From positions 3,905-67,904 of the forward strand of contig JAJDCJ010000008.1 in assembly GCA_029260935.1 (NCBI GenBank): a DNA stretch of 64,000 nt, in the 5' to 3' direction. Source of the stretch: Patescibacteria group bacterium (GTDB taxonomy: Bacteria; Patescibacteriota; Minisyncoccia; Phycocordibacterales; Phycocordibacteraceae). The notes beneath the pieces were generated by a model that was not told where the DNA came from, ran no database searches, and worked only from the letters and a program-made list of their open reading frames with translations. Within the stretch, counting starts at the first letter, position 1. Each line of letters begins with the position of its first letter. Shown one piece after another: positions 3 to 54,555 of this stretch. The position numbers and the translations under genes were made by a program.

Positions 3-3000
3 GGAGGAAACGATTGGGATATTGTTGCGGGATTACCTGGAGCAAATAATACCAACTTCAGCATTTACGATGTTACTGATGCTGCAACTCGTTTGACTAT
101 AGACACTACTGGCAACGTCGGCATTGGCACTACCAGCCCCGGCACGCTCTTTGCCCTTGGCGACACCGGCGCAAACACCATCAACATTTCCCCAACTGCC
201 ACCTCTACGTTCGGAAGCGGTCTCAACATCCGCACTGGCTGTTTTGCGGTAAATGGAACCTGTGTTGGCGGTGGGGGAGGTAGTGGCACCCCAGGGGGCA
301 CAGACGGACAGGTGCAGTACAACAATGGCAGTGCCTTCGGCGGCGCGTCTGCACTTTTCTATGACGACATAAACAATCTCGTTGGCATTGGTACGACGAG
401 TCCTGGATATAAACTTGAAGTGTATGGCACTGGAACCACAGGTGGCATTTTGATTGACGATAGTAGCACCTCGTCTGCCGCTCCACTACTCGAGGTAAAA
501 GGACGACGTTCGGACGCGAATGTTTCGCAATCATTTTCTGCAGGACTGGCACTGGCAGGTTTACGCACTGACGCAACAGTCGGTAGCGCCAAACATCTCG
601 GAACAGTTTATTTCGGCGGTAACCACACCGATGGTGCCGATACAAATCTTCTCTATAGCGCCTCAATTTCCGGTATTTCTGAAGGGACTTTCAGTAACGG
701 AACAACAATGCCAACAGGGCTCGCGTTTTACACTGGCTCAACCGGCACGGCGCTCGGCACCGCAAACCAAACTTTTGGCACAGAACGTCTCCGTATTACT
801 AACGCCGGCAACGTCGGCATCGGGACGACGAGTCCATTGGATACGTTTGATGTTGCAGGAAACATTGGTCTTACCGGTGCGGTAACGCGCCAGATACTAT
901 TGCGTGGTGGAGCAGCGAGTTCTGTGCTTTCTATTGATTTTCCTGAAACGACAGCAACAGAGACAAACCAATTCCGATTGTTTCGTAGCACCACCCAAGC
1001 CGCCGCTTCTGCTCTCCAAATTTACAAAGGTGACAATACCACAAGTGTTCAGACAAACCTCTCTTCATTTGGAAACTCGTACATCAATGCATTAGCAGGC
1101 AACGTCGGCATCGGGACAACAAGTCCGGCAAATAGTTCAAAACTTGGCGTTGAGGGCAGTTTATATTTCACTCAAGGGTTTAAGTACCACGACACAGGAG
1201 TTGTTTCAGCAAGTATCGGCTCTGCGGCTTCAACGGATATCGGGCTTACATTTGACCACCCTACAACTGATTGGAACATTGGTATTGATAACAGTGATAG
1301 TCAGGCATTCAAAATTGCAAATGGTGCCATTGGGGTTGCCGATAAAGTAACTATCACCACCTCCGGCAACGTCGGCATCGGGACAACAAGTCCGTATAAA
1401 AAGCTCTCGGTTGATGGCGATGGAGTGTTTGCGTCTACCGGACCGGTTGAGCTTATACTCCATGCAGATACAGACAATGTTACGGAAACTGACAACCCGC
1501 GCATTATATTCAAACAAGACGGTACGGCTGTTGTTGGTCGGGTCGGGTACAAATCCGGCACAAACTCTTTGGAAATAATAAATGAATTTACTGACAAGCT
1601 TAGTTTAGGAACAAACAATGTCGACCGCCTTACCATAGACTCCGCCGGCAACGTCGGCATCGGTGATACAACTCCTGGAGTTACATTGGATGTAGAAGGA
1701 AATATACGTTCTCAAGGATCACTAGCAGGTCTTATATTCAACGATAGGTCGGCAGGCGCTGCATGGCAGTGGTATGCCTCAGGTGGTACCGCTAGGTTGT
1801 ACAACGGGTCCGATAAGTTTGCTATCGATTCCTCAGGCAACGTCGGGGTCGGCAATACAGCGCCTAATGCTCTTTTGCATATCGGAGCGAATATCAGCAG
1901 TGAGTTAGGTGTATTGGTAGCAAACCAGCAGACAGCACTCGCCACCACGCTCAATGCCAACCAGCCCGTGGCAACATTTTCAGCCGGTAACACCTTGAAT
2001 GATTTCAAAAATACGCTCTATGTTGTTCGGGATACTGCGGCGGGAACAGATTGGACAACGACCAGGTGGCACGATGCAATAAATGTAGACAACTCCTTCC
2101 TTACGCCGAGGACCGACACAAAAGTATGGTGGGAACGCGACCCGAACAACAACATCCAATCATGGGGCAATGCGGCAAGCACCTACCTCACCATCAACGC
2201 AGGCAAAGTCGGGATTGGCACGGTAAGTCCTTCACAAGCACTCATGGTGTCTGGCATCGCATACGCAACTAGTGGGTTTCGCGGTCCGAGTAATGTGACT
2301 GGTGCAACAGTTAGTGATGTCGTCGCATCAGGTTGTGATTTTGAAGGAAGCATGATAACCAGTGGTGGTATTGTTACTACATTCACCTCTGCTTCCAGCT
2401 GTGCAAGCGGGTTTTCAGACGAGCGACTGAAAACAAACATCACGTCGACAGAAGACGGGTACGGCCTTGATGAAATTCTCCAGTTGCAACCGATAACGTA
2501 CAACTGGCTTGGTTCCAGCTTTAGCACAACAACACAGCTCGGGTTTATTGCCCAGGACATTGAGTTAGTGTTCCCTGAACTTATAACGGATTTCGGTACA
2601 ACCACTATTACGCTTCCTGACGGCGCAACCACTACAATTTCACACACGCTCGGGTTGAAGTATGGTGTGTTGACCGTGCCATTAGTGAAAGCAGTACAGG
2701 AACTGTACGCGATGATGGTTGACGTGAAAGAGCAGGTGCTCGCGCTCGTTGACCGCGTTACTGGTGTTGAAAGCAGGGTGGCGAGCTTGGAAGCCGAGAA
2801 CGCACAGCTTACCGCGCGCCTCTCTTTGATCGAATCCGCCCTCGCTTCCGGTACTCTCACTCCAAATATCTTGACGTCCGACGTCAAGATATCGGACGCT
2901 GACACCGAAGCTCCCGTCATTACCATGAACGGCAACAACCCAGCAACCATTGCAGTGGGCGACACCTACGCCGACCTCGGCGCAAGCGTCACCGACAACA

Positions 3001-3401
3001 TTGATCAAAACATCGGCATCCACACCTTTATTAATGACGGGGAAGTGACCACCGTGACGCTCGACACCAGCACCTCTACCACCTACACCATTACCTACCG
3101 CGCCACCGACCAAGCAGGGAACATTGGAGAGGCAACCCGCACCGTGGTTGTTGGTAGAGAAGAAGCACCACTTCCTGAGACAGTCACAGAACCCACCGCA
3201 ACCACGACACCGTCTATCGTAGAGGAAGCGTCAGCACCCACCACACCACCTGTAGTTGTAGAAACGAGTGAAGAAACACCACATGCGTCATCCACACCTG
3301 AGGCACTACCTGCCCCTGTAACTGCCGTTGAAACACCACCTGTTGTAGAGGAAGAGTCAGCACCCACGACACCGCCTTTGGGGGAGGAAGCAGTTAATTA
3401 G
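3..3401 (+). CDS. Giant repeat-containing surface/tail-fibre-like protein, 5'-partial. The reading frame is open from window position 3; the track shows a TTG at 93. It carries about 9 GNVGIGTTSP repeats, then an S74 intramolecular chaperone autoprocessing domain (SDERLKTNI...YNW...GFIAQDIELVFPEL), a coiled coil, an Ig-like (DUF5011-like) module and a Pro/Thr-rich tail.
   Basis: Long ORF with no stop back to the window start in the same frame. Periodic 'xRLTIDxxGNVGIGTTSP' repeats. The motif S-D-E-R-L-K-T-N-I followed by 'LQPITYNW' and 'GFIAQDIELVFPELI' matches the Peptidase_S74/CIMCD consensus from memory. The C-terminal 'APVITMNGNNPATIAVGDTYADLGASVTD' resembles bacterial Ig-like DUF5011. 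Confidence 0.8.
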   Translation, partial: GGNDWDIVAGLPGANNTNFSIYDVTDAATRLTIDTTGNVGIGTTSPGTLFALGDTGANTINISPTATSTFGSGLNIRTGCFAVNGTCVGGGGGSGTPGGTDGQVQYNNGSAFGGASALFYDDINNLVGIGTTSPGYKLEVYGTGTTGGILIDDSSTSSAAPLLEVKGRRSDANVSQSFSAGLALAGLRTDATVGSAKHLGTVYFGGNHTDGADTNLLYSASISGISEGTFSNGTTMPTGLAFYTGSTGTALGTANQTFGTERLRITNAGNVGIGTTSPLDTFDVAGNIGLTGAVTRQILLRGGAASSVLSIDFPETTATETNQFRLFRSTTQAAASALQIYKGDNTTSVQTNLSSFGNSYINALAGNVGIGTTSPANSSKLGVEGSLYFTQGFKYHDTGVVSASIGSAASTDIGLTFDHPTTDWNIGIDNSDSQAFKIANGAIGVADKVTITTSGNVGIGTTSPYKKLSVDGDGVFASTGPVELILHADTDNVTETDNPRIIFKQDGTAVVGRVGYKSGTNSLEIINEFTDKLSLGTNNVDRLTIDSAGNVGIGDTTPGVTLDVEGNIRSQGSLAGLIFNDRSAGAAWQWYASGGTARLYNGSDKFAIDSSGNVGVGNTAPNALLHIGANISSELGVLVANQQTALATTLNANQPVATFSAGNTLNDFKNTLYVVRDTAAGTDWTTTRWHDAINVDNSFLTPRTDTKVWWERDPNNNIQSWGNAASTYLTINAGKVGIGTVSPSQALMVSGIAYATSGFRGPSNVTGATVSDVVASGCDFEGSMITSGGIVTTFTSASSCASGFSDERLKTNITSTEDGYGLDEILQLQPITYNWLGSSFSTTTQLGFIAQDIELVFPELITDFGTTTITLPDGATTTISHTLGLKYGVLTVPLVKAVQELYAMMVDVKEQVLALVDRVTGVESRVASLEAENAQLTARLSLIESALASGTLTPNILTSDVKISDADTEAPVITMNGNNPATIAVGDTYADLGASVTDNIDQNIGIHTFINDGEVTTVTLDTSTSTTYTITYRATDQAGNIGEATRTVVVGREEAPLPETVTEPTATTTPSIVEEASAPTTPPVVVETSEETPHASSTPEALPAPVTAVETPPVVEEESAPTTPPLGEEAVN
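2865..2891. repeat. REP-A palindromic element (atatcttGACGTCCGACGTCaagatat), in-frame inside ORF1 (encodes ...NILTSDVKISD...)
   Basis: Perfect 27-nt palindrome sharing the 13-nt core GACGTC-S-GACGTC with at least 7 other copies in the window. Confidence 0.8.
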
Positions 3402-3821: not shown

Positions 3822-6800
3822 ATGGATTATATATCTGAAAAAAATAAAGAACTAAAAAATGAAGGCACCGACGTTCTTGTCTCATCGTCTGACGCTGCAA
3901 AAGTGCTCGGGTGCACACCAGACCATATTGCCAGACTTTGCCGGAAAGGAGAGTTGCGGTGTGTTCGTATTGAAAAACGATGGAAAGTATACAGAGCTTC
4001 CTTAGATCACTACTCATTATTTGCTCAAGAGCGAGCTGAAGAACTCCAAAGAAAACTTTCTGAAGAAAGAAAACAAGAATACCAACAAAAGAATGGACAT
4101 AGAAAACACAGCACATATCGTCCGACATCACCTTCTTTTTCTTCACATCCATACCATACCAACAAAATTTATTTTATTAGTTTATACACAGTGTTTGTTT
4201 TTACAGCGCTTCCTCTTTCTTTGCTCGCCGCGCAAATTTTTAACTATGAAAGAATAAAAGAATTAGTGCAGGGGAACCCTGCACCACTTTTTGAAGAAAT
4301 AAAAACAGTTACTCACTCGGTACAACAAACTATTGCTTCAGCTACTCGCGCACCACTTGGAAGCGGACAGTATGATTCCTCTTCATATGTTGCACTCGCA
4401 CTCCAACCACAAGCACTATTCAGTGCATTCAGTGATTGGTTGTGGGGCGAACCACAACTATATACACCGCCTGCGCTTGGTGTACCGCGCCGGCAAGAAA
4501 CATCAAATAACACTACGACCAGCATTGAAAGAACCCCCACCACCGTCATCCGCAACGTCACCGAACAGGTCACGGTAACTGGTGTCAGCAACGACACACT
4601 CATCACCAGACTGCAGGAACTTGAAAACAAACTTCGCTCTGAGATTCTGGTGTACTCTGCTCGTTCAGACCGCGGGAGCTCTGGAAACTATCGTGCCATT
4701 TCTCTCACCAATGCCATTCATCAGCTCACCAACACCACTATTACAACCCCAACTGTTTCAGGTGGTTCTTTCACTGACGGATCTTTTTCAGGCACATTCA
4801 GCGGACCTATCTCAGGAGGAACAGGAAGCTTCTCAACACTCACTGCATCAGGTGCAACGACACTTGACTCAACCTTGAGCGCCGCAACCACTACCCTTTC
4901 AGGCGCACTCACGGTTTCCGGTACCGCAACATCCTCTATCGCCGGACAGTTAGGACTTTCGTTTGCCCCAACTGAAGCCCACACGTTTGGCGCATGGGCA
5001 ACGGGTGTGGCAAGCAGTAGTGCGGCAAACGCCTCCCTCTACATCAACCCAAGCACCGCCACCGCAGACAGCAACCTCTTCGGTGTGGCAGTGAATGGCG
5101 CAGTCAAGTTTCTTGTTGATGCCGAGGGTGACATATTCGCAAACTCACTTACCGCATCCGGCGGCGTCACTCTCGCAACCACCACGGCTTCCACCTTTAC
5201 CGTGGAAGGCGACACCACTCTTGGCGATGCTGCCACCGACAATCTCACCATCACCGCCCGTCTCATCTCCGACCTCATTCCCAAGACGGCAAATACGTAC
5301 GACCTCGGTACCACCACCCTCGGCTTCCGCAGTGGTTTCTTCAACACCTCGCTTCTCATTGGCAACACCGCAACCACAACCATTCGTGGTGACCAAGCGA
5401 CCTCAACCTTTGCAAGCGGTATTGAAGCATCTAGGCAAATCACCGCGCCATTCTTTCAGGCAACGAGTACCTCCGCCACCTCAACCTTTGCGGGTGATGT
5501 CACCGTCTCTGGAAAAACCACCCTCGGCACTGCCTCCACTACACAAATCAGTGCCACATACGCCTCATCAACAAATGCATTCTTTGGTTCACTCTCGGTT
5601 GGCTCTCTCACCGGATTCCTCAAAGCAACCGCGGGATCAGTCGCCACCTCACTCATTGACCTGACGTCTGACGTCTCTGGTATACTCGGCACCACCTTCG
5701 GCGGCACCGGCTGGGGCACCATCACCGCAAACACACTCCTTGTGGGAAACGGCACTAACAAATTGGCGACCACCACTGCCGGCACCAACGGACAGGTACT
5801 CGCACTCGTTGGGGGCACGCCAAGCTGGGTGGCAACCACCACGTTCTCAAGCGGGCTCACATACACGGGAGGGAATGTGACAGCGGACCTCGGCACCAGC
5901 GTTGACTTAACGAGTGAAGTCACGGGAACACTCCCGGTGAGCAATGGCGGAACGGGGGCGACGACGTTTACCAACAATCGCCTTCTCACAGGTAACAGCA
6001 CCAGCGCACTCGTTGACGAAGCAAACCTCACCTTTGACGGTTCACTTCTTACTGTTACAGGCAACGCATCCACCACCCAACTTGGCTCAACAGGTTCTTC
6101 ATACTTTGCAACGAGCGGCGGCAACGTCGGTATTGGCACCACAACGCCAAATGCAAAATTGGCCATAAATACCGGTGTTTCCGGACAGCTCGTGCTGTGG
6201 AAGGGTTCGGGTGCACAATCCGGTATCGCATCAGGGCAGGTTGGTGGAGCAAATACGCTGGAATTTACTACAGATGACGCCGCCGGTGGTCAGGCAACGA
6301 GGTTATTACTGAGAGGGACCACCGCCGATGCCGATACTGAATTTTATAGAGGGGCACGAGGTGCGGAAATTCTTACTTTGTTTATAGAGGGGTCAAACGG
6401 GAATGTCGGTATTGGCAGTACCACTCCATTTGCAACGCTTGCAGTCAATCCTATTGCCGGCGACACCAACCAGTTTGTGGTGGGGAGTTCAACCGCAACC
6501 AGTTTTATTATTAACAGTGCCGGCAACGTGGGAGTTGGAGTGACAGACCCGGACAAGACACTTGAAGTGTTTGAAACGGTTGCCGATAGTCAGCTGAAAC
6601 TCTCCTACGACGCCACGCGCTACACCACCTTCCAAGTTACTTCCGTGGGCGACCTGGTGATAGACGCGCAGGGAGGCGATGCGTCGCTTTTGGATGAAAA
6701 CCTCTTTGTGTGTGCCGGCGGTTCCTGCCCTGCCGGCACACCAACGGGCACAGGAAACTTTATAGTTGAGCGTGGTATCGGTGTGGCGTCAGCCACACCG

Positions 6801-7157
6801 ATAACCGGTATTTCGGTGGGTGCCGACAGTGCCATTGTAACGACTGAAAAAAATGTTGCCGACGCCGCTCCTATTACCATTGACTGGGACAACGGCAACC
6901 AACAGCTCATCCGCCTTGCGGCAAGCCGCACCGTGAACTTCTCTAACGTTAAAGCGGGGCAGACACTCCGCTTAACGGTGTGCACGACAGCAAGTTCCCG
7001 ATTGGTCACCTGGGGTTCTACTATTCGCTGGTCGGGTGGCACGGCGCCCACGCAAACGGCAACCGCCAACAAGTGCGATGTGTTCTCGTTCCTTGGTACC
7101 CTTGGTCACACGGGAAGTGCAGTGCTAATTTTCGGCGCGTCAACGCTTAATTTTTAG
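3822..7157 (+). CDS. Giant Thr/Ser/Gly-rich surface protein with an N-terminal HTH (excisionase/HTH_17-like) domain and one TM helix, then about 1000 aa of repetitive extracellular sequence including GNVGIGTTTP-type repeats
   Basis: 1111-aa ORF. The N-terminus 'AAKVLGCTPDHIARLCRKGELRCVRIEKRWKVY' is HTH_17-like. A hydrophobic segment 'IYFISLYTVFVFTALPLSLLAAQIF' follows. Low-complexity T/S/G/A repeats and 'SGGNVGIGTTTPNAKLAIN', 'NGNVGIGSTTPFATLAVN' and 'AGNVGVGVTDPDKTLEV' motifs are shared with ORF1. Confidence 0.75.
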   Translation: MDYISEKNKELKNEGTDVLVSSSDAAKVLGCTPDHIARLCRKGELRCVRIEKRWKVYRASLDHYSLFAQERAEELQRKLSEERKQEYQQKNGHRKHSTYRPTSPSFSSHPYHTNKIYFISLYTVFVFTALPLSLLAAQIFNYERIKELVQGNPAPLFEEIKTVTHSVQQTIASATRAPLGSGQYDSSSYVALALQPQALFSAFSDWLWGEPQLYTPPALGVPRRQETSNNTTTSIERTPTTVIRNVTEQVTVTGVSNDTLITRLQELENKLRSEILVYSARSDRGSSGNYRAISLTNAIHQLTNTTITTPTVSGGSFTDGSFSGTFSGPISGGTGSFSTLTASGATTLDSTLSAATTTLSGALTVSGTATSSIAGQLGLSFAPTEAHTFGAWATGVASSSAANASLYINPSTATADSNLFGVAVNGAVKFLVDAEGDIFANSLTASGGVTLATTTASTFTVEGDTTLGDAATDNLTITARLISDLIPKTANTYDLGTTTLGFRSGFFNTSLLIGNTATTTIRGDQATSTFASGIEASRQITAPFFQATSTSATSTFAGDVTVSGKTTLGTASTTQISATYASSTNAFFGSLSVGSLTGFLKATAGSVATSLIDLTSDVSGILGTTFGGTGWGTITANTLLVGNGTNKLATTTAGTNGQVLALVGGTPSWVATTTFSSGLTYTGGNVTADLGTSVDLTSEVTGTLPVSNGGTGATTFTNNRLLTGNSTSALVDEANLTFDGSLLTVTGNASTTQLGSTGSSYFATSGGNVGIGTTTPNAKLAINTGVSGQLVLWKGSGAQSGIASGQVGGANTLEFTTDDAAGGQATRLLLRGTTADADTEFYRGARGAEILTLFIEGSNGNVGIGSTTPFATLAVNPIAGDTNQFVVGSSTATSFIINSAGNVGVGVTDPDKTLEVFETVADSQLKLSYDATRYTTFQVTSVGDLVIDAQGGDASLLDENLFVCAGGSCPAGTPTGTGNFIVERGIGVASATPITGISVGADSAIVTTEKNVADAAPITIDWDNGNQQLIRLAASRTVNFSNVKAGQTLRLTVCTTASSRLVTWGSTIRWSGGTAPTQTATANKCDVFSFLGTLGHTGSAVLIFGASTLNF

Positions 7158-7209: not shown

Positions 7210-7569
7210 ATGTCAGACACCTATAAACACCTCACCGTTTGGAAAGATTCTGTAACTTTCGCAACTGAAATATATTCAGCTACACGGGAATTTCCACAAA
7301 GCGAGCTTTTTGGACTGACCTCGCAACTGCGGCGTGCAGCCGTTTCAGTTGCTGCAAACCTTGCAGAAGGAGCCGGGAGGAATTCCAAGAAGGATTTTGC
7401 ACGTTTTGTAGATATCGCACTCGGTTCGTTAAATGAAGTGGAAACCCTGCTAAAAATTGCAGAAAACATCGGTTACTTGTCGTCCTCGGTCTATAGTGGG
7501 CTTTTTGATTCAACGCAATCAATCGGGAAGGCTCTTGGTGGTCTTCGTAAATATCTTAAGCACACATAA
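7210..7569 (+). CDS. Four-helix-bundle protein of the 23S rRNA intervening-sequence / Avd-like family
   Basis: 119 aa. 'WKDSVTFATEIYSATREFPQSELFGLTSQLRRAAVSVAANLAEG...FVDIALGSLNEVETLL' matches the TIGR02436/PF05635 pattern from memory. Confidence 0.75.
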   Translation: MSDTYKHLTVWKDSVTFATEIYSATREFPQSELFGLTSQLRRAAVSVAANLAEGAGRNSKKDFARFVDIALGSLNEVETLLKIAENIGYLSSSVYSGLFDSTQSIGKALGGLRKYLKHT

Positions 7570-7573
7570 TTTT

Positions 7574-8761
7574 ATGCCTAAACCACATTCCACATTCCAC
7601 ATTCCGTACTCTCTTCTCCTCATACTCTCCATTCCTCTTTTCTTTGTTGGAGCCGAATTCGCGTGGCAGTGGTACCACGCGAATTCGGCGGGGAACGACC
7701 CACTCCTAAAAGAGCGCATGGTGGTTTCCAGTGAAATTATTGGTAGTGAAGTGCGTTATACATATCTGGGGGAGAAACTACCCGAACTCCTTGTTGAAGG
7801 AGAGGTCGTGCGCTTACGCACAGAAACTTCGTTCAGCAGGGAGGTACACCGCACGAAAGAAGAGGTAACGCGCGAACAGGTTTCCTACCCGCGCCAAGCG
7901 TTCGCCCGCGACGTGCTTGGCGCGTGGTATTACGCGGAACACGCCACCACCACGCGCGAAGCATTTTTGAAAAAAAGCGCTTTCAGATACACCACCACTC
8001 TAGCTAAGTCAGTGTTCTTCTCTGTTGCCTATGCAGTAACCGACACCGTTTTTTCGCACGCCGGTGACGGATATATATCCGGCCTCGGCTTACAGTTTGG
8101 CACGGGGCCTATTAAACAGGCGGCGGCGTGGGGTGCAGCGCATAGTGCGACCAGTGGTGTTGTGAAATCCACTGCCACCACCTTATCAGCTCTTTCTCAA
8201 ATTTCCGATGACCTGGACGTCGTTCAGGCAGATATTGACAGGGTATTCGTTCCGTTTAACACCTCAACAATTTCTTCTTCGGCAGTTATTAGCTCAGCGT
8301 CCTTAAACCTCTATGTTGTTTCAAAGAACAATCAAGATAATGATGGCACTGATTTTGTTACCGTTATTCGGACTGACAACGCCGACTACACCACACTCGT
8401 CAGCGCCGACTACAACAATGCGGGGGCCACATCCAACCCTACTGAAGGCGTTGATACCGGGCAGAGGAAAGACATCACTTCTATTACTACGGGTGCGTAC
8501 TTGGTGTTTACACTGAATACAACGGGAATAGGGTGGATTGCCTTAAGTGGGCAGGCAAGCAACTGTTCCACCGCAACCGGCATTAGCTGTTTTGGGGTGC
8601 GTGAAGGACATGATGTGATTAATAGCCAGGTAGTTGAGAATACCACCAGCTCCGTCACCTTCAGTAGTGCGGAAGCAACTGGCACGTCCCAAGATCCGTT
8701 TCTTTCCGTGACCTACACCGTGCCAAACTTATTCGCGCCGTGGATGTTTGAGCCGTTTTAA
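7574..8761 (+). CDS. Hypothetical secreted/membrane-anchored protein. The track ORF starts at 7457; the likely start is the ATG at 7574, after the upstream gene's stop.
   Basis: Long ORF with an N-terminal hydrophobic segment 'YSLLLILSIPLFFVGA'. No recognisable catalytic motifs. Confidence 0.5.
   Translation: MPKPHSTFHIPYSLLLILSIPLFFVGAEFAWQWYHANSAGNDPLLKERMVVSSEIIGSEVRYTYLGEKLPELLVEGEVVRLRTETSFSREVHRTKEEVTREQVSYPRQAFARDVLGAWYYAEHATTTREAFLKKSAFRYTTTLAKSVFFSVAYAVTDTVFSHAGDGYISGLGLQFGTGPIKQAAAWGAAHSATSGVVKSTATTLSALSQISDDLDVVQADIDRVFVPFNTSTISSSAVISSASLNLYVVSKNNQDNDGTDFVTVIRTDNADYTTLVSADYNNAGATSNPTEGVDTGQRKDITSITTGAYLVFTLNTTGIGWIALSGQASNCSTATGISCFGVREGHDVINSQVVENTTSSVTFSSAEATGTSQDPFLSVTYTVPNLFAPWMFEPF
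7652..7689. repeat. Perfect 15-bp inverted repeat (GCCGAATTCGCGTGG / CCACGCGAATTCGGC) with an 8-nt loop, inside the CDS
   Basis: Seen directly in the sequence. In-frame, encoding 'AEFAWQWYHANSA'. Confidence 0.7.
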
Positions 8762-8887: not shown

Positions 8888-10090
8888 ATGCTCAAAAAAT
8901 TCGCCTCATTCTTTCTCTACAACAACCTTGTGCCGATTATCTTCGGGGTTCTCTTTCTTGGCGCAGGCGCAACATTTGCCGCCTCACCCGAAGCGCGCGA
9001 CGTGGTGTTTAGCGCGCAGGCGGTGGTAGCTTCGGTTGATAATGCATACATCATTTCCGCTGACATCGACGCCTATCCGTTTGACATTCAAATTACAGAC
9101 ATTGCCGAAAGTGACACACACTATTTCATCACCTACACACTGGCAACTATTGATCTTGCAGAAGGGGTATGGCGCGACGTAGTAAAGGCGCGCACGCTTG
9201 AAGTTGAAAAAGCGGTGTTGGCGGGGCGCGACTTGGGTGTGTATGCGGCGCGCCAGCTTTCCGAAACAAGAGATGCCGAACATGCGCGCCTCGTAGAAAC
9301 GCAGAAGATAGAAAAGGACCTAGGCAAGCAACAAAAAATAGTGGCAACGGTGTACGGCGGATTGGTAGGGAGGATGCTTGAACCCAGCGAGGAGGTGTTT
9401 ACAGGATACACACCGGTTGTTTCAGAACCAATTCCTACAGGGGTGGTTGCAGGTGATGGTGGGGGGAGTACAGGTGCGGGCACTGCAGTACCCGCACCTG
9501 ACCCGCGCGCCGCGGAAGCGGCGCGCCTTGCCGCGCTTGAAGCACGCATTTCTTCGCTTGAATCCGCCCTCGCTTCCGGCAGCACCTCTGCCACCCCCAC
9601 TGATGGACGTCGGACGTCCATCAGTGGGGGTGGGGACACCGAAGCTCCCGTCATTACCGTGAACGGCAATAACCCAGCGACCATCAATGTGGGCGACACC
9701 TACGCCGACCTCGGCGCAAGCGTCACCGACAACATTGATCAAAACATCGGCATCCACACCTTTGTTGACGGCAACGAAGTAACTACCGTAGCTTTGGATA
9801 CCAGCACCTCAACCACATACACTATTGTATATAAAGCAACTGACACTTCAGGAAATGTGGGAGAGGCAACACGCACCGTCGTTGTGGGAGGAGCTCAACC
9901 AGGAGCGGAACCACCAACCGTGGTACCTGAAACGCCACCGGCTTCACCTACTGCAACTTCAACACCCGCAACCCCTCCTCCTGAACCTGCCGCAACGTCC
10001 ACCCCTCCGACGAGCCCTCTTCCAGCTGTAGAAACAACTCCACCACCACCCGCAACCATAACCGGCACCACCACGCCAGAATCAATCTAA
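8888..10090 (+). CDS. Secreted protein with a signal peptide, a coiled coil, an Ig-like (DUF5011-like) module and a Pro/Thr-rich tail. The C-terminal cassette is near-identical to that of ORF1.
   Basis: 400 aa. N-terminal hydrophobic 'LVPIIFGVLFLGAGATFA'. The segment 'SLESALASG...DTEAPVITVNGNNPATINVGDTYADLGASVTDNIDQNIGIHTF...EATRTVVVG' shares roughly 90% nucleotide identity with 2830-3160. Confidence 0.75.
   Translation: MLKKFASFFLYNNLVPIIFGVLFLGAGATFAASPEARDVVFSAQAVVASVDNAYIISADIDAYPFDIQITDIAESDTHYFITYTLATIDLAEGVWRDVVKARTLEVEKAVLAGRDLGVYAARQLSETRDAEHARLVETQKIEKDLGKQQKIVATVYGGLVGRMLEPSEEVFTGYTPVVSEPIPTGVVAGDGGGSTGAGTAVPAPDPRAAEAARLAALEARISSLESALASGSTSATPTDGRRTSISGGGDTEAPVITVNGNNPATINVGDTYADLGASVTDNIDQNIGIHTFVDGNEVTTVALDTSTSTTYTIVYKATDTSGNVGEATRTVVVGGAQPGAEPPTVVPETPPASPTATSTPATPPPEPAATSTPPTSPLPAVETTPPPPATITGTTTPESI
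9595..9629. repeat. REP-A palindromic element (ccccactgatgGACGTCGGACGTCcatcagtgggg), in-frame inside CDS 8888-10090
   Basis: Perfect 35-nt palindrome. Same core as the other REP-A copies. Confidence 0.8.
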
Positions 10091-10104: not shown

Positions 10105-10129
10105 TTTGCGGACGTCGGACGTCCGCAAA
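10105..10129. repeat. REP-A palindromic element (tttgcgGACGTCGGACGTCcgcaaa)
   Basis: Perfect palindrome. Intergenic, 3' of RAYT1. Confidence 0.8.
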
Positions 10130-10159
10130 CCTCGCATTTCCGCCCTTCTTCACCCCTCA

Positions 10160-10204
10160 CACCCAAATAATTATGGACGTCGGACGTCCATAATTATTTG
10201 GGTG
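10160..10204. repeat. REP-A palindromic element with long arms (cacccaaataattatgGACGTCGGACGTCcataattatttgggtg)
   Basis: Perfect 45-nt palindrome immediately 3' of the RAYT1 stop. Confidence 0.8.
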
Positions 10205-10215
10205 TCTGTTGTTAT

Positions 10216-10899
10216 TTATTCTAAAGTAACTCCCGCAACCTCATCAACACTAAACTCTTTTAATGTCTTTGAAACTGATTTTTTATACCCTCCTTCACCA
10301 CCAAAAAACTCAAGAAAAAACTTTCGGTCAGTTACCAACGGAAAGTTTTTCTCTCCTAAATAATCAAGGTGACTGCTCCAGCGATACGTGTTCAGAAAAT
10401 CCAACGCCTTTTTCGGGTGTGCGATGCACTGTTTTCGCCATTCCGGCACTTTTAAATCAAGCGGATTAAAGTGAATGTAGTAGGGGATATAAAGGAAGTG
10501 CGCATCACGCTCAATCAGCACCTTCTTATATTTGCCTTGCCACAATGCCCCACTCCGGTCATATTTCTCATTAAAATACTTTGAGTAGCCCCCATTGAGT
10601 TTTTTCATAAAAAGCGAAATACCATTTTCTACAACCGGCGATAACAGCAGGTGATAGTGGTTCGGCATCAAACAGAAAAAATGCACCTGCACCAACCTCT
10701 CCCGGCTCCTCTCATGATAAGTCTGCGGACGTCGGACGTCCGCAGACGGCTCTGTTGCGCGCCGTAATTGATAATAGGGAAGTACATTGCGGGTATCATT
10801 GAATTCATATATATCGTGAATGAACCGCAAATAATCTCTCTCATCAAGAAAAGTAGTGCGTTTATCAACACCTCTGTTGAGTACATGAAAGAAATCCAT
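10216..10899 (-). CDS. REP-associated tyrosine transposase (RAYT; IS200/IS605 TnpA-like HuH Y1 transposase). The track ORF extends to 10995 by reading through the 5' REP; the likely start is the ATG at 10899.
   Basis: HuH motif 'LMPNHYHLLLSP'. C-terminal Y...Q region 'YSKYFNEKYDRSGALWQGKY'. Length about 228 aa. Flanked by palindromes. Confidence 0.8.
   Translation of the reverse strand: MDFFHVLNRGVDKRTTFLDERDYLRFIHDIYEFNDTRNVLPYYQLRRATEPSADVRRPQTYHERSRERLVQVHFFCLMPNHYHLLLSPVVENGISLFMKKLNGGYSKYFNEKYDRSGALWQGKYKKVLIERDAHFLYIPYYIHFNPLDLKVPEWRKQCIAHPKKALDFLNTYRWSSHLDYLGEKNFPLVTDRKFFLEFFGGEGGYKKSVSKTLKEFSVDEVAGVTLE
10721..10747. repeat. REP-A palindromic element (gtctgcgGACGTCGGACGTCcgcagac) inserted in-frame inside the RAYT1 coding sequence (encodes ..PSADVRRPQT..)
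   Basis: 27-nt perfect palindrome. Its length is a multiple of 3 and the ORF continues through it. Confidence 0.8.
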
Positions 10900-10925: not shown

Positions 10926-10952
10926 ATCTGCGGACGTCGGACGTCCGCAGAT
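10926..10952. repeat. REP-A palindromic element (atctgcgGACGTCGGACGTCcgcagat), 5' of RAYT1
   Basis: Perfect palindrome. Confidence 0.8.
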
Positions 10953-13173: not shown

Positions 13174-14040
13174 ATGCACACAAGTCTAACCGAAGACACA
13201 CTTACTCTTCTTGAAAAAAAAGCGCGCGACGTGCGCGAGACCCTTATTCGTATGCTGACTGAAGCGGGTAGTGGACACACAGCGGGTTCTTTGGGAATGG
13301 CAGATATTTTTGTGGCGTTGTATTTTCATGTACTTAACCATAATCCGCAAGACCCAGAATGGGAAGACAGGGACCGTTTAGTGCTTTCAAATGGTCATAT
13401 TGTGCCGGTTAGATACGCCACCATGGCGCACGCGGGGTATTTCCCTGTTGAAGAAACAATGACGCTAAGAAAACTTGGCTCACGCCTGCAAGGACACCCT
13501 GAACGCACCAAACTGCCCGGACTTGAAACAACGTCAGGCCCTCTCGGCACAGGTCTTTCACAGGCCTCCGGTATGGCGCTTGCCGCTAAAATGGATAAAA
13601 AGAAGTACCGCGTGTACTGCGCCATGAGTGATGGCGAACACCAGGCAGGTAATGTATGGGAGGCGGCCATGTTTGCAGGCGCCAACAAACTCGGCAACTT
13701 AGTAGGTATTATTGACCGTAACAATATCCAAATTAACGGTATGACCGAAGAGGTGATGCCACTTGAACCACTGCAAGAAAAATACAAATCATTTGGTTGG
13801 CACGTGCTTGAAGTGGATGGCCATAATATAGAAGACATTGTGGACGCCTACGACAAAGCGCGTGCCATTTATGAAAAACCAACACTCATAGTTGCTCACA
13901 CTATTCCCGGAAAAGGCATCCCCGATATTGAGTTTGACTATACCTGGCACGGCAAGTCGCCAACCACAGAGGAGGCAAAGAAGTTTATTGAAGAAGTACG
14001 CAGTATGTGCGGAAAAGTAACCTGTGGCGATAAAGACTAG
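13174..14040 (+). CDS. tkt: Transketolase, N-terminal (TPP-binding) subunit
   Basis: 'GSGHTAGSLGMADIFVALYF', 'GPLGTGLSQASGMALA' and 'SDGEHQAGNVWEA' motifs. Confidence 0.9.
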   Translation: MHTSLTEDTLTLLEKKARDVRETLIRMLTEAGSGHTAGSLGMADIFVALYFHVLNHNPQDPEWEDRDRLVLSNGHIVPVRYATMAHAGYFPVEETMTLRKLGSRLQGHPERTKLPGLETTSGPLGTGLSQASGMALAAKMDKKKYRVYCAMSDGEHQAGNVWEAAMFAGANKLGNLVGIIDRNNIQINGMTEEVMPLEPLQEKYKSFGWHVLEVDGHNIEDIVDAYDKARAIYEKPTLIVAHTIPGKGIPDIEFDYTWHGKSPTTEEAKKFIEEVRSMCGKVTCGDKD

Positions 14041-16276: not shown

Positions 16277-16724
16277 AACGGCTATGGATTGGCTATACCA
16301 TGCAAATATGCGGCAGATGAACCTACCACTATTGCTACGAATATAGTAACCGCCATTGATGGAATCAAATGATGCCAACTGCCCACCACATTCTCGGCTT
16401 GGAGTTCTTCTTTTTTGTACCACTGGCGAACATACGGATGAACCACTTCTCCCCATATAACTTTCTCCATCATAGACCCTACCCTATACCAACTGAGGGC
16501 GTCTTGTCAAAAAGGTCTTGTATAAGCTTGAGTTAAAAAGGGTTAACCTGATCAGCCCAAAGTATTCCTCCTACAGATAAAATGGCAACTAACGTCGCTA
16601 AGATTAATACTGTGTTTTGGAATGAGTTATCAATTGCTCTGTCGACGACTCGTGCTCGTTCATTTCCTGTAAAAAGTGATTTTGTCATATTGTGTTTTAT
16701 TTTATGTTTAGGATAGTAAAGACT

Positions 16725-22368: not shown

Positions 22369-22403
22369 CCCCCATTACGGAAGTCTGACTTCCGTAATGG
22401 GGG
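22369..22403. repeat. REP2 palindromic element (cccccATTACGGAAGTCtGACTTCCGTAATggggg)
   Basis: Perfect 35-nt palindrome, one of 4 copies in the window. Confidence 0.8.
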
Positions 22404-22414
22404 CAAGAACCAAT

Positions 22415-22437
22415 ATATGGACGTCCGACGTCCATAT
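22415..22437. repeat. REP-A palindromic element (atatgGACGTCCGACGTCcatat), 12 nt downstream of a REP2 copy
   Basis: Perfect palindrome with the same core. Confidence 0.8.
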
Positions 22438-24270: not shown

Positions 24271-24287
24271 CTACCTCAGTACTCTAT

Positions 24288-24335
24288 TTGTGCAACACTC
24301 GGTGTTGCACAAACCGAGTGTTGCACAAATTTGTT
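24288..24335. repeat. REP-B palindromic cluster 3' of RAYT2 (ttgtGCAACACTCGGTGTTGCacaa, then a second nested copy GTGTTGCACAAA + ccgagtg stem)
   Basis: 25-nt perfect palindrome followed by a direct repeat of GTGTTGCACAAA and a nested 7-bp stem. Confidence 0.7.
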
Positions 24336-24353: not shown

Positions 24354-25007
24354 TTAGTCAATGACAAACGATTCCTTTGCAGGATTTGTTTGTACATATT
24401 CCTTATATGCTTTGGTGTCTTTAAATTGATCCAAGAGTATAGATGTGTCTATGAGCGGGTGAAGTCGAGTGTCTCCCAGGTAGTCGCGATAGCTGGACCA
24501 TGTAAAGGAGTGTTCTTTCCCTCGAACACCTGCAATTTCTCGAGGGTTTTTATGAATGTAGGCCGAGACATGTAGCAACTGCTCATTATTTTCTATATGC
24601 ACAGCTTTAAATGGCCCCTGAAAAAGATGGCCGACATGTTTGTATTTAGTGTTGAAGTACTTAGTATAAGCATTTAAAATACGTTGCATGTAACGCGAGA
24701 TGCCCCCATCTTCCCTCTCACCTACAAGCCAATGTATGTGATTAGGCATAAGTGCAAAGGTAAGTAGTGAAATATATCTTTTTTCTGTAATGACTTTGTA
24801 CGTGTCATCAATAACATTCCAATGTTTGTTAATTCTGAACGAAGTGGCGTGGCGAGAAATATTTTTAAAATCAATTGGAGAAACAAGATGTGTCATCAAA
24901 AATAGGAAGCGGAAGCGATCACTGTCGTCATAGAAAATATCCTGTTTGTTGTTGCCGCGAACCATCAGGTGGTAGTACTCTCCTGGTGCAAAATCAATAT
25001 TCCTCAT
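24354..25007 (-). CDS. Second REP-associated tyrosine transposase (RAYT; IS200/IS605 TnpA-like). The track ORF extends to 25055 through the 5' palindrome; the likely start is the ATG at 25007.
   Basis: HuH motif 'LMPNHIHWLVGE'. 'YYHLMVRGNNKQDIF' N-terminal block. C-terminal 'YIHKNP...WSSYRDY'. Flanked by REP-B palindromes on both sides. Confidence 0.75.
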   Translation of the reverse strand: MRNIDFAPGEYYHLMVRGNNKQDIFYDDSDRFRFLFLMTHLVSPIDFKNISRHATSFRINKHWNVIDDTYKVITEKRYISLLTFALMPNHIHWLVGEREDGGISRYMQRILNAYTKYFNTKYKHVGHLFQGPFKAVHIENNEQLLHVSAYIHKNPREIAGVRGKEHSFTWSSYRDYLGDTRLHPLIDTSILLDQFKDTKAYKEYVQTNPAKESFVID

Positions 25008-25026
25008 ATGTTTAATCCTACCATCG

Positions 25027-25059
25027 TAAAGTGTGCAACACTCGGTGTTGCACACTTTA
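25027..25059. repeat. REP-B palindromic element 5' of RAYT2 (taaagtGTGCAACACTCGGTGTTGCACacttta)
   Basis: Perfect 33-nt palindrome with the same core as 24288-24312. Confidence 0.8.
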
Positions 25060-25113
25060 CCTATATACAGTTGAGGTTTTGATTATGAGGGACGTTGCTT
25101 AAAACGGCTTGCT

Positions 25114-30729: not shown

Positions 30730-30756
30730 GAAATATGGACACGGCGTGTCCATATT
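30730..30756. repeat. REP-like palindrome, variant core (aaatatGGACACGgCGTGTCCatattt)
   Basis: Perfect 27-nt palindrome, intergenic between pheS-like and gyrB. Same ATATGGAC...GTCCATAT arm style as the REP-A copy at 22415. Confidence 0.7.
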
Positions 30757-30887
30757 TTATCAAAGGGGAAAAGTGAAGGAAAAAGAAGAAACATACCACT
30801 AAAAATTACTGAAAAACCACTGTAGAAAACAGAGATTTTTGCTCTATAGAGTGATATAATAAAGGGGCGCACAGAGCGTTATTTTTT

Positions 30888-39955: not shown

Positions 39956-39994
39956 CCCCCCCATTACGGAAGTCTGACTTCCGTAATGGGGGGG
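39956..39994. repeat. REP2 palindromic element (7-C/G arms), followed at 40009-40022 by a REP-A core
   Basis: Perfect palindrome ccccccc-ATTACGGAAGTCtGACTTCCGTAAT-ggggggg. Confidence 0.8.
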
Positions 39995-40008: not shown

Positions 40009-40022
40009 GGACGTCCGACGTC
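40009..40022. repeat. REP-A core (GGACGTCCGACGTC) with imperfect arms
   Basis: Exact core match; arms tgaag...cttca with a bulge. Confidence 0.6.
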
Positions 40023-42279: not shown

Positions 42280-42316
42280 CCCCCCATTACGGAAGTCTGA
42301 CTTCCGTAATGGGGGG
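42280..42316. repeat. REP2 palindromic element, followed at 42331-42344 by a degenerate REP-A core (GGACGCCCAACGTC)
   Basis: Perfect palindrome with 6-C/G arms. The downstream 29 nt match the sequence following the 39956 copy. Confidence 0.8.
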
Positions 42317-42664
42317 TAAGAGTCAATGAAGGACGCCCAACGTCACTATGTTTGGAATAACAAGAAATACTGAAAACAGTGTTGGGTTAAAAAACACTCA
42401 GGATTATTCAGGATATGATATAGAGAAGATATGATTATTCCTTCTTTTAGGGAAAAGAGGGCTGGGAAAGAGTCTGATAAAAATTATACTGACCTTACGG
42501 TACTCTCAGCTCTTTCTATTTCGCTCATAACTTCATATGAAGATTTTGAAGACTGGGAAATTGAACGAAGGAACATCTGTTCTGATCAATGTGACAACGC
42601 TGGTTTTCGGACATTCAGTATGGATTGGCTCTTATGTGTCATTCGCTGTATGAGGGGGAATTAA

Positions 42665-52170: not shown

Positions 52171-52310
52171 CGAGGCGCTAGGTGACAGAAAAATTAGGAC
52201 ATCCGATGTCCTAATATGACAAGGCGAGGCGCTAGGTAACAGGTGACACACATAAGAAAAATTAGGACATCCGATGTCCTAATATACCAGAGGCCCGGGC
52301 CTCTGGTATA
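52171..52310. repeat. Intergenic repeat block: a two-unit tandem repeat (gcgaggcgctaggtRacag...aaaaATTAGGACATCcGATGTCCTAATat), each unit with a 23-nt palindrome, followed by a 28-nt perfect palindrome TATACCAGAGGCCCGGGCCTCTGGTATA
   Basis: Palindromes at 52193-52215, 52261-52283 and 52283-52310. Direct repeats at about 52171-52190 and 52223-52243. Confidence 0.75.
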
Positions 52311-54242: not shown

Positions 54243-54331
54243 TATCCTTTCTCCAAAATGTTTTCTATTCTTTTCTTCTCACAAAACTGCCAACTCTAAA
54301 AACTATCAAGAGCAGTCTTGTGAATGTGAAA

Positions 54332-54380
54332 GAAACCCCTCCCATTACGGAAGTCTGACTTCCGTAATGGGAGGGGTTTC
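54332..54380. repeat. REP2 palindromic element with extended arms (gaaacccctccc-ATTACGGAAGTCtGACTTCCGTAAT-gggaggggtttc)
   Basis: Perfect 49-nt palindrome between convergent genes. Confidence 0.8.
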
Positions 54381-54555
54381 TCAGCGTTTTATTTCACTGT
54401 GATTTCCACAGTTTTTTCGCTAGGAGTGTCACGCCTTCTCTTTCTTTGTAGCAAAACTTGATATATCAAGTTTTGCTTTAATGTTATTTACTGGAGGCAC
54501 TGGTCGTGAATAAACAAGGTTAAGTTAGAGTAAAAAACATCTATACAAGTAGTTT

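Follow-up and report, generated by a model that had tools for sequence, protein, structure and literature searches.

To our knowledge, repetitive extragenic palindromes (REPs) and the REP-associated tyrosine transposases (RAYTs) have been studied almost exclusively in Proteobacteria. In the arrangement described there (the REPtron; Nunvar 2010; Bertels & Rainey 2011; Ton-Hoang 2012), many short palindromes flank a single Y1/HUH transposase-like gene and most copies lie just downstream of genes. We analysed a 64-kb stretch of DNA, contig JAJDCJ010000008.1 (hereafter the window), which resembles these systems in both respects and whose transposase-like enzyme has E. coli TnpA-REP (4ER8) as its best fold match. 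Copies of the palindrome also lie in frame within two surface-protein genes of the window, one already open at its first positions (open reading frame 1, ORF1) and one starting at position 8888 (the 8888 gene). Neighbouring genes and database matches place the window in the Patescibacteria, or candidate phyla radiation (CPR), and loci from other Patescibacteria assemblies are labelled L001–L134 throughout. No report of REP/RAYT systems in the CPR was found in the literature searched.

The window contains eight copies of the sequence GACGTCSGACGTC, where shuffles predict 0.01, and each of them lies at the middle of a perfect odd-length palindrome whose arms measure 6–23 nt (Table 1). The core, GACGTC-S-GACGTC, is stop-free in all frames; units span 23–47 nt, and the commonest is 27 nt, or nine codons. 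Copy density is highest around the RAYT gene, with five of the eight no more than 0.6 kb away. Three are inside open reading frames and in frame, as are three of ten in L130, a contig of another assembly whose RAYT is 69–70% identical to that of the window and which has the same GAPDH-RpiB-Rpe-Tkt neighbourhood. The presence of the core in frame in both surface-protein genes had been proposed from the sequence alone; we confirmed it and corrected the extents of the two palindromes to those given in Table 1. No conserved tag or target motif was seen in the REP flanks, with CGTC occurring only within the stem. The copy upstream of the RAYT start codon and the copy inside the RAYT gene agree in the 12 innermost nt of both arms (TCTGCGGACGTC).

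Classical REPs are imperfect and carry an unpaired 5' GTAG or CGTC, whereas the palindromes of the window are perfect, have one central base and lack an unpaired tag. The conserved part here is the hairpin tip (13–15 nt), the outer arms being specific to the genome and to the copy, and about one third of the copies seen here lie inside open reading frames, unlike the classical extragenic elements. Similarly, the CGTC-tagged REPs of PMC3733652, in which Patescibacteria are not covered, have an unpaired tag and no dedicated transposase, whereas here CGTC is part of the stem and a cognate RAYT is present. All copies of the window and of L128–L130 are perfect palindromes with a single central base, despite their varying outer arms, and some of these arms reach 21–25 nt by taking in flank-specific sequence. 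One further candidate, GACGTCTGACGTC at 5663–5675, was rejected as a REP: it has no arms, belongs to a recurring DLTS(D/E)V motif of the protein encoded at 3822–7157 and is probably a coincidence of coding.

The RAYT gene lies 126 nt downstream of the 8888 gene. Its product matches the Y1_Tnp domain (PF01797) with 40.5 bits against a cut-off of 23, and the motifs LMPNHYH and YYIHFNP are invariant across 60 RAYT homologues. Against the NCBIfam equivalog NF047646 (REP_Tyr_transpos) it scored 43 bits, below the cut-off of 80, which sets the enzyme apart from the Proteobacteria systems, as does the in-frame REP in its own gene. A phmmer search against the PDB returned ISDra2 as the sole match (E = 0.08). 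The AlphaFold2 (AF2) model, with a predicted local distance difference test score (pLDDT) of 87.7, had 4ER8 as its top Foldseek match (E = 1.8e-5, TM 0.64 on the target), with ISDra2 and IS608 TnpA next.

Same-core palindromes stand on both sides of this gene, two past the stop codon and one upstream of the start (Table 1), in agreement with the sequence-only reading, which had placed one element family around the transposase. The same arrangement was found in all nine loci that hold a whole RAYT homologue (L021, L030, L053, L083, L106, L119, L128, L129 and L130); in L116, where the locus ends after the first 38 RAYT residues, one palindrome lies nearby. The arms around these homologues are genome-specific, and the palindromes around the L128 gene read GACATC-S-GATGTC, in which the change to the core is compensated. 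A Y1 gene flanked by such palindromes, as seen in the window and in nine other loci, is the defining layout of REP/RAYT systems. The palindromes form a true REP-like family, linked with the RAYT-like gene next to them.

The core was also scanned for in one genome per species, chance matches in high-GC genomes being set apart by arm length. Among the matches listed, the core had extended arms of 10–16 nt in many Patescibacteria metagenome-assembled genomes (MAGs), whereas those listed from high-GC genomes had arms of 7–8 nt, which is the pattern itself, and were taken as chance. An assembly artefact was rejected, as the same core and its linkage to a RAYT recur in MAGs from NCBI, ENA, JGI and Logan assemblies. 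The REP/RAYT pair is widespread in Patescibacteria. Within its 64 kb the window has one RAYT of this clade, and the synteny of L130, with GAPDH-RpiB-Rpe-Tkt beside the RAYT, fits vertical descent of the gene. A further Y1-transposase-like gene in the window (24354–25055, minus strand), with 29% identity to this RAYT, is flanked on both sides by GTGCAACAC-tcg-GTGTTGCAC (24287–24313 and 25026–25060) and has no internal copy; together with its palindromes it looks like a second REPtron with a repeat of its own.

The REP inside the RAYT gene encodes residues P51–T60, which form a disordered loop between helix 20–32 and the HUH strand 70–77 in the AF2 model. Perfect palindromes were found at the same site in L030 (6292–6312), L106 (5998–6022), L119 (7299–7321), L128 (10168–10206), L129 (10159–10185) and L130 (10175–10205), and in each of these loci the internal copy carries the same genome-specific arms as the flanking copies. 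Remnants (RDVRRF, SVGRPTS and YGRRTS) were seen at this site in L053, L021 and L083. Across the loci the core is read in two frames, as DV(G/R)RP or as GR(P/Q/R)TS. Among the closest 118 RAYT relatives (out of 4160), 99 have the motif D[VI]x[RC] at this site, as the residue pair V-R in 68, I-C in 21, I-R in eight and V-C in two, and the association of V/I with R/C is marked (Fisher 5e-13, a value that ignores phylogeny and relatedness). V-R corresponds to GACGTC/GACGTC and I-C to GACATC/GATGTC, a compensated base pair that is visible in the protein. The residue between them is either Gly (GGA) or Arg (CGA), equivalent to the free G/C at the palindrome centre.

Back-translation was used to ask if the RAYT-internal site could accommodate a perfect palindrome with arms of ≥11 nt. 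It could in 81% of the close relatives, against 23% when the outer right flank was swapped among homologues, and the back-translated DNA agreed with the real DNA in all three cases checked. In distant RAYT relatives the palindrome signal at the protein level was weak, at 25 of 132 compared with 15 and 8 in controls. Palindromes deduced from protein alone are unreliable in linkers rich in Ser, Thr, Ala, Gly, Pro or Leu, where one 29-residue peptide gave two false matches, and the method was used only with matched controls at the fixed RAYT site. Because of the covariation and the back-translation signal, we take the constraint at this site to act on the nucleic acid and not on the peptide. The internal REP may be kept by function or by repeated homogenisation from neighbouring copies, and it could be an autoregulatory site or a master copy inseparable from its enzyme. 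No earlier report of a RAYT gene carrying its own cognate REP in frame was found in the literature searched. In one RAYT homologue, P0309, the peptide YLDVGRQDM back-translates to the arm variant of the ORF1 REP (ATATCTT-GACGTC).

In-frame REP insertions are not peculiar to ORF1 and the 8888 gene. The core was found in frame in a leucyl-tRNA synthetase (LeuRS; L004, ~600–650), as a doublet where the editing domain starts, in a tRNA-guanine transglycosylase (Tgt; L001, ~7750–7790), as a doublet near the zinc-site region, and in TrmD, an RsmI-like methyltransferase and a PIF1-like helicase (L008 1523, L009 4505 and L091 4156). Intragenic in-frame REPs are documented in Rickettsia and several other bacteria, as Rickettsia palindromic elements (RPEs) and as GTAG/CGTC REPs (PMC3733652). 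To call such insertions unusual, as the sequence-only reading did, is fair, but they are already known in Rickettsia and elsewhere. The Patescibacteria copies are like the Rickettsia elements (Ogata 2000; Di Nocera 2013, PMC3733652) in that palindromes stand in frame in coding genes, housekeeping genes included, and are tolerated as extra peptide. The two differ in size, RPE-1 measuring 100–150 bp and the unit described here ~27 nt.

ORF1 and the 8888 gene share the end of a coiled coil and an immunoglobulin-like (Ig-like) module. The blocks GAATCCGCCCTCGCTTCCGG and GACACCGAAGCTCCCGTCATTACC and a 77-nt block are identical between the two genes, in line with the sequence-only reading, which had called segments of the cassette identical or nearly so. 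Its estimate of ~90% identity over ~330 nt proved too high for the segment as a whole: blastn gave 78% over 348 nt (2814–3154 versus 9542–9888). Taken by stretch, identity is 20/20 in 2832–2851, ~59% in the REP-bearing linker (49 versus 55 nt), ~92% in 2901–3035, which holds the 77-nt identical run, ~70% in 3036–3157 and ~46% in the Pro/Thr-rich tails. Four-fold sites of the two Ig modules agree at 19 of 20 positions over codons 1–45 and at 9 of 21 over codons 46–84, a difference that argues for recent local gene conversion of 2901–3035 with 9635–9769. The pattern indicates a recent short conversion tract at ~2832–3035, laid over an older duplication or conversion. Among 5.8 billion proteins the two Ig modules of the window are each other's best match, and the best match of the ORF1 C-terminus is the 8888 protein at 73%, the next reaching 70% over 24% coverage. 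The locus is in these respects like gene conversion between paralogous surface modules, with a tract of near-identity that includes synonymous sites, 6.7 kb between the copies and a diverged background.

The coil ARISSLESALASG of the 8888 protein is missing in its orthologues and is typical of S74 proteins, which suggests that the donor of the conversion may have been an ORF1-type gene, from which an S74-type coil end would have been copied into the 8888 gene. Those orthologues (37–46% identity) have the same layout of transmembrane helix, domain, linker, Ig-like module and tail, with PF16403 present, and Peptidase_S74 and PF16403 are combined in many Patescibacteria proteins. Both gene families end natively in this Ig-like domain in many other Patescibacteria, with no REP seen at the junction there, and the architecture needs no mobile cassette to account for it. 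The REP-derived peptide was found in none of 155 retrieved homologues of the surface-protein families, and no REP-like palindrome was found upstream of the Ig domain in the loci read as DNA (L121–L126 and L131–L134; seven loci for the junction itself). In the search for a close strain with an empty site, a metagenome scan with the cassette protein returned nothing closer than 62%, and an exact look-up of the 8888 protein returned no contig.

Other explanations of the repeated segment were also considered. The presence of a bAvd-like gene at 7210–7569 led us to consider the ~330-nt repeat as the template and variable repeats (TR/VR) of a diversity-generating retroelement (DGR); this was rejected on the grounds that its 45 mismatches are spread over all bases and that both copies are coding domains, the window not having been searched for a reverse transcriptase. 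No silent donor cassette was found in the window, where tblastn and blastn of the cassette gave only the two expressed copies. The locus is therefore unlike programmed cassette switching, with a single tract and with no silent cassette array or evidence of switching in the window.

The two linker REPs do not lie at the junction of the shared region, where they had been placed earlier, but 34–39 nt inside its high-identity 5' edge and ~143 nt from the 3' edge. The identity tract neither begins nor ends at a REP, the outcome that the sequence-only reading had itself tied to a coincidental link. In the AF2 model of the 8888 protein a helix (206–230) and the Ig domain (255–333, pLDDT >90) are separated by residues 231–247 with pLDDT <50, and the REP-encoded residues 235–249 overlap this stretch, which places the REP peptide of the modelled protein in a disordered interdomain linker. 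The ORF1 and 8888-gene REPs differ in their outer arms, in the centre base (C versus G on the coding strand) and in the frame of the core (TSDV versus GRRTS), and their positions are shifted by 5 nt upstream and 1 nt downstream. The flanks of the linker REPs (20 and 24 nt) are nevertheless identical, synonymous sites included. Because the REPs differ in arms, frame, centre and position despite identical flanks, the REP segment has a history separate from that of the cassette. When the 27-nt unit is removed the frame stays open in both genes, as read directly from the sequence, with GTLTP joined to TDADTE and GSTSATP to GGGDTE. The predicted RNA hairpin is –17.2 kcal/mol for the ORF1 REP and –43.9 kcal/mol for that of the 8888 gene.

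Comparison with L130 bears on the age of the linker site. The exact arms of the ORF1 REP recur in an intergenic REP of L130 at 13607–13641 (CCCAATATCTTGACGTC-g-GACGTCAAGATATTGGG; ATATCTT-GACGTC), and the ORF1 REP is therefore a copy of a circulating variant and not one grown in place. L130 also has an ORF1-type gene of >2500 codons that, as in the window, lies several kb past the RAYT on the opposite strand and has an Ig-like and Pro/Thr-rich end; a REP at 16417–16443 (AATGTCCGACGTC-g-GACGTCGGACATT, peptide QNVRRPTSDI) abuts the first Ig residue of this gene. The window and L130 have REPs at other orthologous positions as well (one on the upstream side of the RAYT, two on the downstream side and one within the gene), with different arms and yet as perfect palindromes in each. 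The linker REP site probably predates the split from the L130 lineage, with an occupant that turns over.

We therefore favour, with a probability of about 0.6, an explanation in which REPs of the RAYT family are tolerated passengers of the disordered linker that, in ORF1 and the 8888 gene alike, joins a coiled-coil helix to the Ig-like domain, the site being old and its occupant changing, while the shared module comes from separate gene conversion. The RAYT would spread a 27-nt hairpin, mostly locally, and copies in open reading frames would survive only in permissive loops that tolerate ~9 extra residues, survival inside genes being possible because the unit is nine codons long and its core stop-free. 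One old REP insertion into an ORF1-type gene may have founded the linker site, which both lineages would have inherited and which would have reached the 8888 gene together with the coil-linker-Ig segment. The occupying REP would later have been replaced, or would be changing, much faster than its flanks, and the two Ig copies, 6.7 kb apart, would have been partly homogenised by gene conversion, apart from any REP activity. The perfection of the palindromes and the extension of their arms into the flanks might, speculatively, come from intrastrand template switching. Quasipalindrome template-switch mutagenesis (Ripley; Lovett laboratory) would account for perfect palindromes despite divergent arms.

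Some observations weigh against this explanation. In two genomes, three genes have a REP that stands 0–8 nt before the Ig module, a closeness that exceeds random insertion and for which common descent with conversion may account. The REP is enclosed by the recent conversion tract (–34 to +143 nt), which would be expected if a REP lesion had started it. A REP riding with the conversion should, in addition, be identical in both genes and is not, so that an extra step is needed, whether replacement, a second insertion or heterology escaping conversion.

The bracketing of the REP by the tract could be explained if the REPs themselves stimulated homogenisation, with a RAYT nick or hairpin-stalled replication followed by repair or template switching from the paralogous module and so driving C-terminal exchange. 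The REP does lie within the youngest identity tract and near its 5' end, REPs abut the Ig module in more than one genome, and the RAYT is adjacent, with REP density highest around it. The tract edges, however, are away from the REP, and the REPs have not been homogenised, since frame, centre and arms differ and no chimeric (imperfect) REPs were seen. The Ig domain is native to both families in other lineages that have no REPs there, and a single conversion event forms the basis of the proposal, which we consider distinctly unlikely. On the same grounds (a native Ig domain, a tract that neither begins nor ends at the REPs, REPs that are not homogenised) and with in-frame REPs known elsewhere, the mobilisation or switching of the C-terminal cassette by REP/RAYT activity that was proposed from the sequence alone is not supported, although the REP that abuts the Ig domain in L130 leaves REP-stimulated conversion a small probability. 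In a broader form, the in-frame REPs would be working cis-elements of the RAYT: the internal copy, which remains a hairpin throughout a clade, could be a master copy or an autoregulatory site, and RAYT action at the domain boundaries of surface genes could start local conversion that homogenises or exchanges Ig-like modules. We hold this to be quite improbable; if it were true, it would amount to REP-guided remodelling of the cell surface in Patescibacteria.

Alternatively, ORF1, the 8888 gene and its L130 counterpart of ORF1 may each have received a REP independently at nearly the same place, guided by a preference for local sequence or structure and by tolerance in the linker only. Arms, frame and centre base vary among the three copies, whose offsets are 1–5 nt, the ORF1 copy is a variant that circulates elsewhere, and complementarity beyond the 27-nt unit (CCACCCCC/GGGGGTGG and ACACCCAAAT/ATTTGGGTGT) suggests entry at the tip of pre-existing hairpins. 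No common target motif was seen in the flanks, however, and ORF1 and the L130 gene look orthologous in position and architecture, which makes one old insertion more economical; the remnant similarity of TCGGACGCT and TCGGACATT downstream of the ORF1 REP also hints at an older occupant. We regard independent insertion as unlikely. Selection of the hairpins as features in their own right, either as mRNA structures that pause translation between domains or as a peptide motif, would fit the strong predicted RNA hairpins (–17 to –44 kcal/mol) and their location exactly at a domain boundary. The element is, however, absent from all other homologues examined, is found also in intergenic DNA and in unrelated housekeeping genes, and yields a peptide that varies with the frame, and we consider selection of this kind very improbable indeed.

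Table 1 Genes, modules and REP copies discussed in the text, with positions in the window
Feature	Position	Strand	Details
ORF1	3..3401	+	open from window start; giant NVGIGTT-repeat surface protein
20-nt block GAATCCGCCCTCGCTTCCGG	2832..2851	+	identical to 9560-9579; coil end, start of high-identity tract
In-frame REP in ORF1	2866..2892	+	ATATCTTGACGTC-c-GACGTCAAGATAT; 27 nt, arms 13; peptide NILTSDVKI
Ig-like module of ORF1 (Bact_surface_Ig-like)	2901..3152	+	codons 1-45 = 2901-3035
8888 gene	8888..10090	+	400-aa membrane-anchored surface protein; conserved Patescibacteria family
In-frame REP in 8888 gene	9591..9633	+	CCACCCCCACTGATGGACGTC-g-GACGTCCATCAGTGGGGGTGG; arms 21; aa 235-249 (ATPTDGRRTSISGGG)
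Ig-like module of 8888 gene	9635..9886	+	86% aa identity to ORF1 module
Intergenic REP	10105..10129		TTTGCGGACGTC-g-GACGTCCGCAAA; between convergent 8888 gene and RAYT
Intergenic REP	10159..10205		23-nt arms; 11 nt past RAYT stop codon
RAYT-like Y1/HUH transposase gene	10216..10899	-	227 aa; HUH = NHYH, Tyr motif YYIHFNP
In-frame REP inside RAYT gene	10721..10747	-	GTCTGCGGACGTC-S-GACGTCCGCAGAC; encodes P51-T60 (PSADVRRPQT)
REP	10926..10952		26 nt upstream of RAYT start codon
Distant intergenic REP	22415..22437		ATATGGACGTC-c-GACGTCCATAT; 12 nt after family-B palindrome
Distant intergenic core-only copy	40010..40022		arms 6; after family-B palindrome

Other palindromes were observed in the window. 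A second family (family B), CCCCCATTACGGAAGTC-t-GACTTCCGTAATGGGGG, occurs at 22369–22403, 39956–39994, 42280–42316 and 54331–54381; its core, GAAGTC-N-GACTTC, differs from GACGTC-N-GACGTC by a compensated change. Downstream of genes the two form a composite repeat, in which a family-B palindrome is followed 12–16 nt on by a GACGTC-type core (at 22415, at 40010 and, degenerate, at 42332). The palindrome ATTAGGACATC-c-GATGTCCTAAT occurs twice (52193–52215 and 52261–52283); elsewhere its core flanks and lies within RAYT genes of a 'DIGCP' type (L128), of which there is none in the window. A further palindrome, AAATATGGACACG-g-CGTGTCCATATTT, lies at 30731–30757. GC-rich palindromes in coding sequence, at 9505–9526 in the window and 12204–12232 in L130, are not REPs and come from Ala/Arg-rich coding or from runs of Gly and Pro; GGN and CCN codons are complementary and are a source of false positives for intragenic palindromes.

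The genes around the locus encode GAPDH, RpiB, Rpe and a split transketolase. ORF1 encodes, in order, a Peptidase_S74 (endosialidase-chaperone) domain (PF13884 at residues 775–831), the coiled-coil end, the linker, the Bact_surface_Ig-like domain (PF16403 at residues 943–1020) and a Pro/Thr-rich tail. The 8888 protein has an N-terminal transmembrane helix, a conserved domain of ~170 residues, the linker, the Ig-like domain (PF16403) and again a Pro/Thr-rich tail. In the 1111-residue protein encoded at 3822–7157, an HTH_17 domain at the N-terminus precedes a membrane segment and fibre-like repeats. At 7210–7569, between two large surface-protein genes, a 119-residue protein of the 23S-rRNA-IVP or bAvd-like four-helix-bundle type is encoded.

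For the two surface-protein genes, the idea of cassette switching is thus replaced by two overlapping ordinary processes, gene conversion between paralogues and tolerated insertion of a REP into a disordered linker. Short odd peptides in CPR proteins, such as DVGRP, GRRTS and TSDV, call for caution in annotation, as they are repeat-derived. The RAYT with its own target in frame, together with the covariation of V-R and I-C, gives a direct handle on the co-evolution of RAYT and REP. What stands out is a REP family common to many Patescibacteria lineages, with a unit length and a stop-free core that suit coding sequence in gene-dense genomes.

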